33,744 nt of DNA. Origin: an uncultured virus (IMG/VR IMGVR_UViG_3300025010_002040). Lineage: Duplodnaviria > Heunggongvirae > Uroviricota > Caudoviricetes. The translations under genes were made by a program, and so were the position numbers. Below, in pieces: positions 9,598 through 9,830 of the stretch (position 1 is the stretch's first letter; each line of letters begins with the position of its first letter). Location: IMG/VR virus record IMGVR_UViG_3300025010_002040. One strand, given 5' to 3'. Under the pieces are notes generated by a model. It was not told where the DNA came from, searched no databases, and saw nothing but the letters and a program-made list of their open reading frames with translations.

Positions 9598-9626
9598 TTG
9601 ATTTTGTGTAGTATTTTTAGTATAAT
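9598..9626 (+). promoter_or_regulatory. sigma70/sigmaA promoter, antisense to the late operon
   Basis: TTGATT-17 nt-TATAAT. Confidence 0.8.
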
Positions 9627-9630
9627 ATAG

Positions 9631-9830
9631 TTAGAGGATAACTCTAAATATTACCAAGAAACTGACCATACAGGTAAAAGGCTTTTAAACTGAGAGAACA
9701 GGTCAAACTCGAAAGAAATCACTACTCATCGACAGAGGTAAAAACGTCGGACATAGAACTAGAAACTGACTAGGTAAAAAAAGGTATGTCGGGTAATGCA
9801 AAGTTAAATTTTTGCATTGCTTTTTGTTTT
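9631..9830 (+). ncRNA. Putative structured sRNA/leader with four AGGU(A/C)AAA-loop hairpins
   Basis: Bounded by a promoter and an intrinsic terminator; repeated AAACTGA...AGGTAAAA units with different but pairable stems; no ORF. Confidence 0.6.
9793..9830 (+). terminator. Intrinsic terminator / attenuator
   Basis: GTAATGCAAAG-TTAAAT-TTTTGCATTGC followed by TTTTTGTTTT. Confidence 0.8.

Follow-up and report, generated by a model that had tools for sequence, protein, structure and literature searches.

The subject of this analysis is a cassette of approximately 460 bp (positions 9583-10040) in a stretch of 33,744 nucleotides (nt) from an uncultured virus of the Caudoviricetes (IMG/VR record IMGVR_UViG_3300025010_002040); the whole stretch is referred to below as the window. 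On its plus strand the cassette carries a conserved RNA of about 195 nt and, behind the terminator of this RNA, an open reading frame (ORF) for a hydrophobic peptide of 30 amino acids (aa). We judge the chances to be about even that it constitutes a type I-like, RNA-controlled small-toxin module, arranged in tandem like the type III toxin-antitoxin (TA) systems or IsrK. The sequence analysis shows the anatomy of the locus, the marks of selection, an RNA and a peptide that stay linked in three lineages, covariation in two helices and the potential for RNA-ORF pairing in two of the three lineages; transcription, read-through, toxicity of the peptide and the direction of regulation are parts of the model that we infer. 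The independent lineages available for comparison were three (the clade of the window, the phage contig L257 and the genome G192), and all statements concerning structure and pairing are predictions.

In the proposed model a single promoter would give rise to a structured RNA of ~195 nt ending at an intrinsic terminator, and the peptide would be made only from transcripts that read through this terminator. Pairing with codons 3-14 of the ORF, in cis and/or in trans from the abundant short RNA, would involve the middle 16 nt of the RNA as well as helices on either side, and a local hairpin would additionally hide the Shine-Dalgarno (SD) site. The RNA would hold the toxin-like membrane peptide silent, and the peptide would be released upon loss or titration of the RNA, e.g. 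after a shut-off of transcription or the loss of the prophage. The parts of the cassette are as follows.

9583-9594, no strand assigned: left cassette junction, a partial copy (CAGTATAGTGA) of the right-junction hairpin (direct repeat D2 / inverted repeat I4)
9598-9626, plus: sigma-70-type promoter TTGATT-17-TATAAT (consensus scan)
9632-9825, plus: conserved non-coding RNA of ~195 nt (variation counts, identity in L257 and G192)
9632-9646, plus: 5′ hairpin UAGAG/CUCUA (pair probability 0.87-0.98)
9672-9779, plus: four clustered AGGU(A/C)AAA motifs, each directly 3′ of a predicted mini-stem of 3-4 bp
9712-9727, plus: 16-nt RNA arm (AAAGAAAUCACUACUC) that matches 9885-9900 of the peptide ORF as a perfect inverted repeat
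9750-9790, plus: helix GACAUA/UAUGUC around unit 4 (centroid fold; two-sided changes in 3 of 6 pairs)
9791-9830, plus: intrinsic terminator of the short RNA (scan and pair probabilities)
9831-9869, plus: hairpin of the 5′ untranslated region (UTR) over the SD site (AGGUGA, 9854-9859) and part of the GUG start (minimum free energy [MFE] and centroid folds)
9866-9958, plus: 30-aa peptide ORF, MSLDSLRVVISLIGLLVSILNLLLNCKKKK (ORF list, homologues, variants)
9885-9900, plus: target of the RNA arm, codons 7-12 (inverted repeat, folds, duplex tests)
9962-10018, plus: 3′ terminator-like hairpin of the peptide transcript (inverted repeat I3; a 17-bp stem, then a U-run, in the folds)
10019-10040, no strand assigned: right junction, hairpin AAAAAGCCAC-TATA-GTGAC, found directly upstream of terS in cassette-free relatives

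The cassette fills a 458-bp gap between an ORF of 114 aa (9238-9582, minus strand) and one of 394 aa (10041-11225, minus strand), with TerL, an HNH endonuclease and further phage genes around it. The 114-aa ORF, which matches phrog_1066 and no Pfam family, is called a putative small terminase (terS) solely from its position just upstream of TerL. A consensus scan for promoters placed TTGATT-17-TATAAT at 9598-9626 on the plus strand (10 of 12 matches), in agreement with the near-consensus promoter of a first-pass annotation of this DNA; the strong terminator named there was also found, as a hairpin of 13 pairs (9791-9822, plus strand), most of them at a probability of 0.98-1.0, followed by a T-run. 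This terminator is probably leaky, and the RNA 9632-9825 would represent a short isoform or the leader of a read-through transcript. Between the terminator and the peptide ORF the consensus scan found no promoter-like site on the plus strand, and the peptide would therefore be translated only from terminator read-through. The promoter looks constitutive and appears to serve both the RNA and the peptide.

The nucleotide sequence of the RNA is strikingly uniform among close relatives. Nine close copies were compared (the window, L002, L005, L009, L010, L222, L223, L225 and the partial L008); three of them had been retrieved by anchors, L225 by one of 24 nt in the RNA and L222 and L223 by one of 28 nt at the start of the ORF, and identity within these anchors is therefore built in. 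Variable positions numbered 3 of 194 in the RNA (two substitutions and one inserted G), 2 of 40 in the 5′ UTR, 9 of 93 in the peptide ORF, 50 of 312 in terS and 5 of 49 in the promoter region, where the hexamers are constant and the spacer (9606-07) and positions 9629-31 vary. The invariant block extends from about 7 nt past the -10 box to the final T in the first T-run of the terminator; with edges at the predicted start site and at the T-run, it has the appearance of a transcript. The same gradient is seen over larger distances: identity to the window in L257 and G192, respectively, is 89% and 81% for the RNA, 75% and 68% for the 5′ UTR, and 62% and 51% for the ORF DNA. The TATAAT hexamer is retained in L257 (with TGT upstream) and in G192. 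An 18-codon ORF within the RNA, starting from the ATG at 9786, was considered as well and rejected; the change 9826 G>A gives a stop in most variants.

Several substitutions between the lineages preserve base pairing. In the 5′ hairpin of G192 one A-U pair is replaced by G-C and one G-C pair by G-U, and the helix formed by 9750-55 and 9785-90 shows, across L257 and G192, the exchanges G-C to A-U, A-U to U-G and U-A to C-G, with one end pair broken. Two-sided changes affect four pairs overall, a number reached in none of 500 shuffles and absent when the partners are slid by 1-3 columns; with three lineages this covariation is suggestive, not proof. The G-U substitutions fit an RNA of the plus strand only. 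Taken together, these patterns indicate that the RNA is probably real and under selection, which bears out the earlier proposal of an unannotated, structured plus-strand RNA between a genuine promoter and terminator. The selection on structure proposed along with it held for the GACAUA/UAUGUC helix, compensated in 3 of its 6 pairs, but is equivocal for the stem drawn in repeat unit 2, where G192 shows a compensatory exchange (A-U to U-A) and L257 a mismatch (U-U).

The peptide ORF (9866-9958, plus strand) begins with GUG, six bases downstream of the SD sequence AGGUGA. Its product, at 30 aa within the size range (<60 aa) of small hydrophobic type I toxins, consists of a single hydrophobic helix with a KKKK tail; it is thus the membrane peptide that had been anticipated, and its sequence looks toxin-like. 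The SD site has an unpaired probability of at most 0.04 and lies, with part of the start codon, within the hairpin 9831-9869; by analogy, such a locked site resembles those of many type I toxin mRNAs. L257 and G192 have homologous ORFs at the corresponding position, of 30 aa (43% identity) and 34 aa (37% identity), respectively. BLASTP of the window peptide against that of G192 is weak (E = 0.087), and the residues M1, D4, S18, N21 and K28 are invariant in all three. Among close variants four codon changes are synonymous and four are conservative (L3F, G14S, V17I, C26Y), and the frame is never interrupted or shifted. The homologues and these conservative changes suggest a coding gene. Searches of the ESM Atlas gave leads only, all scoring below 0.9 (0.85 for the best and 0.82 for a cluster with Hol_Tox on 15% of its members). 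A two-codon mini-ORF at 9861-9869 (AUG-CUG-UGA; AUG-UGU-UAA in L257) overlaps the GUG start in both phage lineages, and in G192 the AUG equivalent to its start is the start codon of the peptide itself.

The RNA and the ORF share a perfect 16-nt inverted repeat (9712-9727 with 9885-9900); the longest found in 200 shuffles of the region was 13 nt. Since the repeat is inverted, pairing is possible only between two RNAs of the same strand. In the free RNA the arm is largely accessible (mean unpaired probability 0.77). The read-through RNA of 386 nt folds far better than its shuffles (z = -4.41; 0 of 100 as good), and both its MFE and centroid structures contain the 16-bp helix, flanked by two more (9755-63 with 9872-81, and 9706-09 with 9905-08), so that pairing spans codons 3-14. 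Cofolding of the window pair yielded a gain of -22.7 kcal/mol, versus -9.5 ± 3.2 for shuffled RNA (0 of 150 as low), and the duplex of the RNA with the translation-start region reached -30.6, equalled in 2 of 500 shuffles. In L257 the 16-nt pairing is represented by 14 Watson-Crick pairs, one G-U pair and one mismatch, and a change in the RNA lengthens it by 2 bp; the cofold gain is -18.7 (shuffles -8.4 ± 3.1; 1 of 150 as low), and the prediction of cis pairing with a hairpin at the ribosome-binding site (RBS) holds there likewise. A metagenome contig from run X1 carries 9712 A>G, which retains a G-U pair with 9900, and this is the sole change within the RNA among the differences listed (17 of 21). 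The 16-nt complementarity, the promoterless peptide and the locked SD site were overlooked in the first-pass annotation; together they point to control by RNA-RNA contact, of a type I-like or IsrK-like kind, rather than to protein sponging. Its call of a TA or abortive-infection-type module was nevertheless a fair one, as the RNA appears to be functionally tied to the membrane peptide downstream.

Several results weigh against a type I-like module. The pairing of whole RNA with whole mRNA does not discriminate (RNAduplex -53.2 versus -46.6 ± 5.6; 38 of 300 shuffles as low in the window). In G192 neither the cofold gain (-12.4 versus -8.5 ± 3.1; 13 of 150 as low) nor the start-region duplex (-21.1; 113 of 500 as low) exceeds chance, and non-cognate combinations of RNA and mRNA give -12.6 and -13.5, similar to the cognate pair of G192. 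This genome nonetheless keeps 15 of the 16 arm bases, with one deletion; an arm conserved without pairing is not explained by the ORF, and the RNA must have further constraints. All 194 nt are conserved, far beyond what an antisense function needs. The target in L257 could instead have been kept, in part, through constraint on the peptide motif RVVIS. The peptide had no family match in Pfam, PADLOC, NCBIfam or PHROGs, loose E-values included, and phmmer against 1.84 billion representatives returned no match. The type I families listed in the available part of T1TAdb have no same-strand tandem layout. Assembled Logan contigs cover parts of the stretch in four runs, and such contigs cannot show the start, end, strand or level of a transcript. 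One of them (X3, 228 nt, from an RNA library) extends over 9717-9944, across the terminator; the library may hold DNA, and the contig is no proof of a transcript.

The repeats from which the first-pass annotation started are real, with properties that differ from those described. The motif AGGTMAAA occurs four times within 108 nt, always on the plus strand (9672, 9700, 9736 and 9772; spacing 28, 36 and 36 nt), and ten times in both strands of the whole window, versus 3.84 expected, a count that 0 of 100 shuffles attained. AAACTGA is present three times (9659, 9687 and 9763), but its 11 copies in the window match the 10.5 expected by chance and its clustering alone is notable. The aligned units have a mean column identity of 54%, and Tandem Repeats Finder (TRF) reported no tandem array in the RNA at a minimum score of 30. 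The unit coordinates read as reported, except that G9750 was used twice in the drawing. The four hairpins drawn there did not survive folding: in the ensemble of 9633-9830 their stems have probabilities of 0.00 (U1, CC/GG), 0.01 (U2, GAG/CUC), 0.28 (U3) and 0.00 (U4). Nor is the loop kept everywhere, AGGU being altered to AGGCUAAA in unit 2 of G192 and to AGUAUAAA in unit 4 of L257. The RNA alone folds no better than its shuffles (z = -0.59; 50 of 200 equally good), its stable elements being the terminator, the helix GACAUA/UAUGUC (9750-55 with 9785-90) and, at the 5′ end, the hairpin 9632-9646. We noted a short mini-stem directly 5′ of each GUAAAA (CUG/CAG twice, CUC/GAG once, CUAG/CUAG once), a predicted register that fits all four units better than the earlier drawing. 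These mini-stems are invariant in 7 sequences, by which pairing is neither supported nor contradicted. In units 1-3 the earlier stems and the mini-stems may be able to coexist as H-type pseudoknots whose third loop is A-rich; this is our own reading and not a computed result.

Rfam 15 gave no match at the gathering score in the whole window, ToxI, Abiff, IsrK and the type I antitoxin RNAs included, in line with the first-pass annotation, where no known family was recognised. At E<=10 the region 9400-10200 yielded 8 matches, all far below the gathering scores and regarded as noise; the only one touching 9632-9825 on the plus strand is a fragment of STnc410 (13.7 bits, 9808-9852). A sponge of the CsrB/RsmZ type, one of the parallels originally drawn, is not supported: the repeated motif is AGGU and not GGA (only 2 GGA triplets occur in 9632-9825), and a CsrA gene was found in none of the three carrier genomes.

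The region appears to be a self-contained, horizontally mobile cassette. Relatives of the 114-aa protein are encoded in 80 IMG/VR loci, of which 8 (L003-L010, all near-identical) have the cassette and 72 lack it, including some whose 114-aa protein is 93% identical. Homology with cassette-free relatives ends at about 9549-9592, and that of the cassette-only loci L002 and L006 at 10050, which delimits the cassette to 9583 and about 10040-10050. It is flanked by a partial duplication of the hairpin GCCAC-NNNN-GTGAC, which precedes terS in cassette-free relatives. The 394-aa ORF accompanies it in the window, L003-5, L007 and L010, and is absent from L002 and L006. The description of the RNA as antisense to the late operon is thus correct as to orientation alone, the cassette being an insertion that most related phages lack.

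More distant copies extend this distribution. A near-identical copy (97%) resides in G050, a genome from the same order but a different family. L257, an IMG/VR phage contig found by a degenerate pattern, has terS DNA 75% identical to that of the window, and its cassette sits directly between terS and a cos-like element. In G192, a complete 1.8-Mb genome of the same family as the host genome bin (G000), the cassette lies among hypothetical genes that form an island, and no phage hallmark was seen within ±8 kb. The order of parts is common to the window clade, L257 and G192 (promoter, RNA, terminator, SD, Lys-tailed peptide, 3′ terminator), and the two distant copies have recognizable counterparts of each: a TATAAT promoter, an RNA of ~195 nt, a hairpin with a U-rich tail, a GGUGA SD, an ORF of 30 or 34 aa and a 3′ terminator.

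Further searches were made at several levels. A 'distant' blastn of the cassette against 50,697 phage records gave no match; a 20-mer scan of IMG/VR returned known copies only, and motif-pattern scans returned, besides these, unrelated coding repeats, iterons and AT-rich DNA of giant viruses. With covariance model R1 no copy was found in 151 genomes of the family beyond G000 and G192 (two weak matches, E = 0.048 and 0.075), nor in the 72 terS loci, and nhmmer and tblastn revealed no paralogue in the host genome. Among 307 genomes of the order, 109 gave blastn matches at E<=0.01, of which only G000, G050 and G192 were kept as real; the others are short and AT-rich (best E = 5.8e-5) and were treated as noise. 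The metagenome and IMG/VR collections were scanned by exact patterns or BLAST-level similarity, and remoter relatives may exist.

In several respects the locus resembles the type I pairs RalR/RalA, TisB/IstR-1, ZorO/OrzO and ShoB/OhsC, which share with it (i) a prophage small RNA (sRNA) of ~180-195 nt, (ii) its own promoter, (iii) a 5′ hairpin and (iv) a rho-independent terminator. The toxins TisB, ZorO and ShoB are small and hydrophobic, as is the candidate described here. The toxin mRNAs of this group have a structured, closed RBS, like the present ORF. RalA and the RNA of the cassette each have 16 nt of perfect complementarity inside the coding region of a toxin or toxin candidate; according to the available part of the RalR/RalA paper, RalA represses RalR through these 16 nt, from the opposite orientation (PMC4041452). 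Unlike this group, the RNA and the toxin candidate are placed head to tail on one strand, the latter lacks a separate promoter, and in one of the three lineages the pairing is not preserved. RalR is, moreover, a DNase and not a peptide, with no sequence or family relation to the locus. The promoter and terminator of the cassette both lie on the plus strand; promoter-like sites of the minus strand, where a type I antitoxin would be encoded, are weak and not conserved. A minus-strand antisense RNA from the sites at 9835-9808 and 10057-10029 was rejected, given weak hexamers, no terminator and absence from G192 and the cassette-only loci. In all families listed in the consulted sections of T1TAdb the antitoxin is encoded on the opposite strand (overlapping, convergent or divergent); four Gram-negative families have an antisense RNA located 5′ of the mRNA without overlap, and a Gram-positive group is named besides. 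A full-text literature search found no description of a same-strand or tandem type I layout; subscription journals were not covered, and this is no proof of absence.

Toxins of the type I TA systems of Bacillota prophages are small and hydrophobic, with basic tails, and show no sequence relation to our peptide. The loci bsrG/SR4, yonT/SR6 (SPbeta) and CD0977.1/RCd11 etc. (phiCD630-1) are like the cassette in being prophage-borne, in their RNA antitoxin and, in the consulted parts of the reports, in the prophage-keeping roles proposed for them (PMC5848175, PMC7699646). As described in those parts, their antitoxins are antisense RNAs overlapping the toxin gene on the other strand, unlike the RNA of the cassette.

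With type III systems (ToxIN, AbiQ/antiQ, CptIN, TenpIN) and with RCd22/AbiF of a Clostridioides difficile prophage the cassette shares the order promoter, repeat RNA, terminator and toxin (here a candidate) on one strand, a terminator that sets the ratio of RNA to toxin and a phage or anti-phage context, to judge from the available text of PMC12373285. As far as that text goes, type III RNAs neutralize a protein toxin by binding it, whereas the ORF behind the RNA of the cassette encodes a membrane peptide of 30 aa, without any match in Pfam or PADLOC that would suggest an endoribonuclease, and the evidence is for RNA-RNA pairing. Type III repeats are near-identical units of 34-45 nt, in contrast to the degenerate short motifs of the cassette, which has no match to the ToxI or Abiff models of Rfam. 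Membership of type III, the second parallel drawn at the outset, is not supported: near-identical tandem repeats, a ToxN/AbiQ-type protein downstream and a ToxI match are all lacking. A textbook ToxIN-like locus was identified elsewhere in the host genome bin (G000 contig C25; L241 1200-2050), with a TTGACA promoter, 4.2 repeats of 42 nt (98%), a terminator and ToxN_toxin (E = 8.7e-36). The idea that the phage RNA mimics the ToxI antitoxin of the host was rejected (local alignment score of 14 against the repeats of that locus; 411 of 500 shuffles as high).

A close parallel in layout is the isrK-orf45-anrP locus of the Gifsy-1 prophage. According to the consulted sections of PMC4825925, IsrK exists as short and read-through isoforms, its middle part pairs in cis with the next ORF, the RBS lies in a hairpin, and the short form activates. 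To that extent the two loci agree in their prophage location and in one promoter producing a terminated sRNA and a read-through mRNA (as presumed for the cassette); cis pairing between mid-sRNA and ORF and a hairpin at the RBS are likewise predicted in the window and in L257. They differ in that the output of the IsrK locus, on the same partial source, is toxic through AntQ, indirectly, with IsrK as a trans activator, whereas in the cassette the ORF itself looks toxin-like. The hosts of IsrK are Gram-negative enterics, those of the cassette Bacillota of the Izemoplasmatales type, and Rfam detects no sequence relation.

These likenesses define the alternatives to a type I-like module. If the RNA is only a cis-acting leader (an attenuator or riboregulator) that sets read-through on sensing a protein, small molecule or ribosome, the 16-nt match would be a lineage-specific extra. 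The leaders of riboswitches are conserved better than the gene behind them; so is this one (89% and 81% versus 62% and 51%), and the order promoter-leader-terminator-SD-ORF is that of a classic attenuator. The absence of pairing in G192, where a hairpin stands at the terminator position in a different register, fits this explanation too. We consider it unlikely, as pairing reaches significance in two lineages out of three, no convincing anti-terminator was seen (only an 11-nt, 82% match, I7), Rfam assigns no family and the stability of the RNA by itself is unremarkable (z = -0.59 and -1.42). An ON switch in the manner of IsrK, in which the read-through isoform is locked in cis by arm pairing and SD hairpin until the short isoform opens the lock in trans and activates the peptide, would account for a layout identical to that of isrK-orf45 in the available part of PMC4825925 (one promoter, a leaky terminator, mid-sRNA/ORF pairing, an RBS hairpin) and for the predicted cis lock. 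Several SD-like AGGU/AGAGG motifs in the RNA could compete for the anti-SD sequence CCUCUA (9843-48), and the RNA 5′ end UAGAGG and CCUCUA change together in G192, to UGGAGG and CCUCCA. A trans copy would, however, have to bind an ORF site already held by the cis copy, which makes the opening of the SD hairpin hard to explain; the 9-nt complementarity between the 5′ end and the UTR is at chance level in the region (I11 among 16 pairs), and IsrK is not related in sequence. Such a switch seems to us decidedly unlikely.

Two further explanations leave the peptide as a bystander. The repeats might bind protein, the RNA acting as a sponge or a type III-like antitoxin, possibly cut into units of 28-36 nt. 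The motif cluster far beyond chance, the unit spacing, the possible H-type pseudoknots of units 1-3 in our own reading, the one compensatory change in the U2 stem, a conservation over the whole length that suggests more than an antisense function, and the layout shared with ToxIN and RCd22/AbiF in the consulted text of PMC12373285 all speak in its favour. It is nevertheless very unlikely: the ORF downstream has 30 aa and encodes no protein toxin, ToxN_toxin occurs in one of the three carrier genomes, at an unlinked locus with its own 4.2 repeats of 42 nt, and CsrA (PF02599) in none, the control searches matching in E. coli, B. subtilis and T. maritima. The units are, moreover, too degenerate for TRF, three of the four drawn stems have a probability of about 0, and two motif copies are lost in homologues. 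The position immediately upstream of the putative small terminase gene and the direct repetition of short motifs could alternatively indicate a DNA-level element, with repeats bound by terminase (cos/pac) or by a regulator and with promoter, terminator and ORF arising by chance in AT-rich DNA. This explanation is largely refuted and its residual probability is minimal, as the cassette is missing from 72 of 80 related terS loci, some with a 93% identical TerS among them, and recurs in the non-phage island of G192; a different conserved element of ~60 nt (11228-11289, GGGTACCGCATGGGTGGGC; 39 of 82 loci) is the shared candidate for packaging, and the compensatory and G-U changes fit a plus-strand RNA.

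The type I-like module could also be part of something broader, although the following version is speculative and we would give it a small chance. It would be a hitherto undescribed type I/III hybrid class, in which one promoter drives a repeat-derived, pseudoknot-forming RNA that silences a read-through-encoded peptide by pairing and, in addition, engages a partner (30S subunits or an RNA-binding protein) via four to five SD-like hairpin-plus-GUAAAA units, as a sensor of infection or translation status. Bacteria of the Izemoplasmatales type would carry the class in their chromosomes, and their phages would carry it beside the cos site, as exchangeable cargo.

If the type I-like module is confirmed, it would represent head-to-tail, single-strand control of a small membrane toxin by an RNA antitoxin, the ratio of the two being set by a leaky terminator. 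Since this layout has hitherto been tied to type III systems and IsrK, the module would make the boundary of types I and III less sharp, and it would add an RNA family outside Rfam and a peptide family outside Pfam from phages of uncultured Izemoplasmatales-type Bacillota, a poorly studied group. Finders of type I TA systems presume an opposite-strand antisense RNA, to judge from the consulted part of T1TAdb, and would overlook such loci. Given the 16-bp helix and the compactness of ~400 nt, compensatory mutagenesis in a surrogate host could test the model directly.

The analysis also marked a variable cargo slot between a cos-like site and terS. An element of ~60-90 nt at 11228-11320 (read on the minus strand) consists of GGGTACCGCATGGGTGGGC, an A/T-rich spacer and a C-run, with a core of ~60 nt (11228-11289). 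It is present, by our own count from the table of loci, in 39 of 82 related loci at variable distances upstream of terS; it directly adjoins terS in L055, L062, L066, L070 and L071, and elsewhere unrelated cargo lies between. It is likelier than the cassette to be the cos/packaging region, and the stretch from there to terS forms the variable cargo slot. In many related phages the hairpin AAAAAGCCAC-NNNN-GTGAC(TT), with a varying loop, is found again at the edges of cargo and just upstream of terS; it may serve both as a terminator and as a hotspot of recombination through which cargo is exchanged.

The 394-aa ORF (10041-11225, minus strand) is cargo of the same slot, replaced or absent in L002, L006 and L257. 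It has no Pfam, NCBIfam or PHROG match and a sub-threshold PADLOC match to SP_VI (E = 0.004). In the DNA that replaces it, a short hydrophobic frame lies on the late-gene strand (L006 1196-1261, L002 655-720; a weak tblastn match, E = 0.044). Positions 902-20057 of the window map to a single contig of the genome bin (C15, 19,156 bases); the remainder lies off C15, and the window contains no N. Immediately downstream of terL, in the structural or late region, a 293-aa protein with a RES domain (PF08808, E = 2.6e-7) is encoded at 6716-7597 on the minus strand, and it may be another toxin-type cargo gene.

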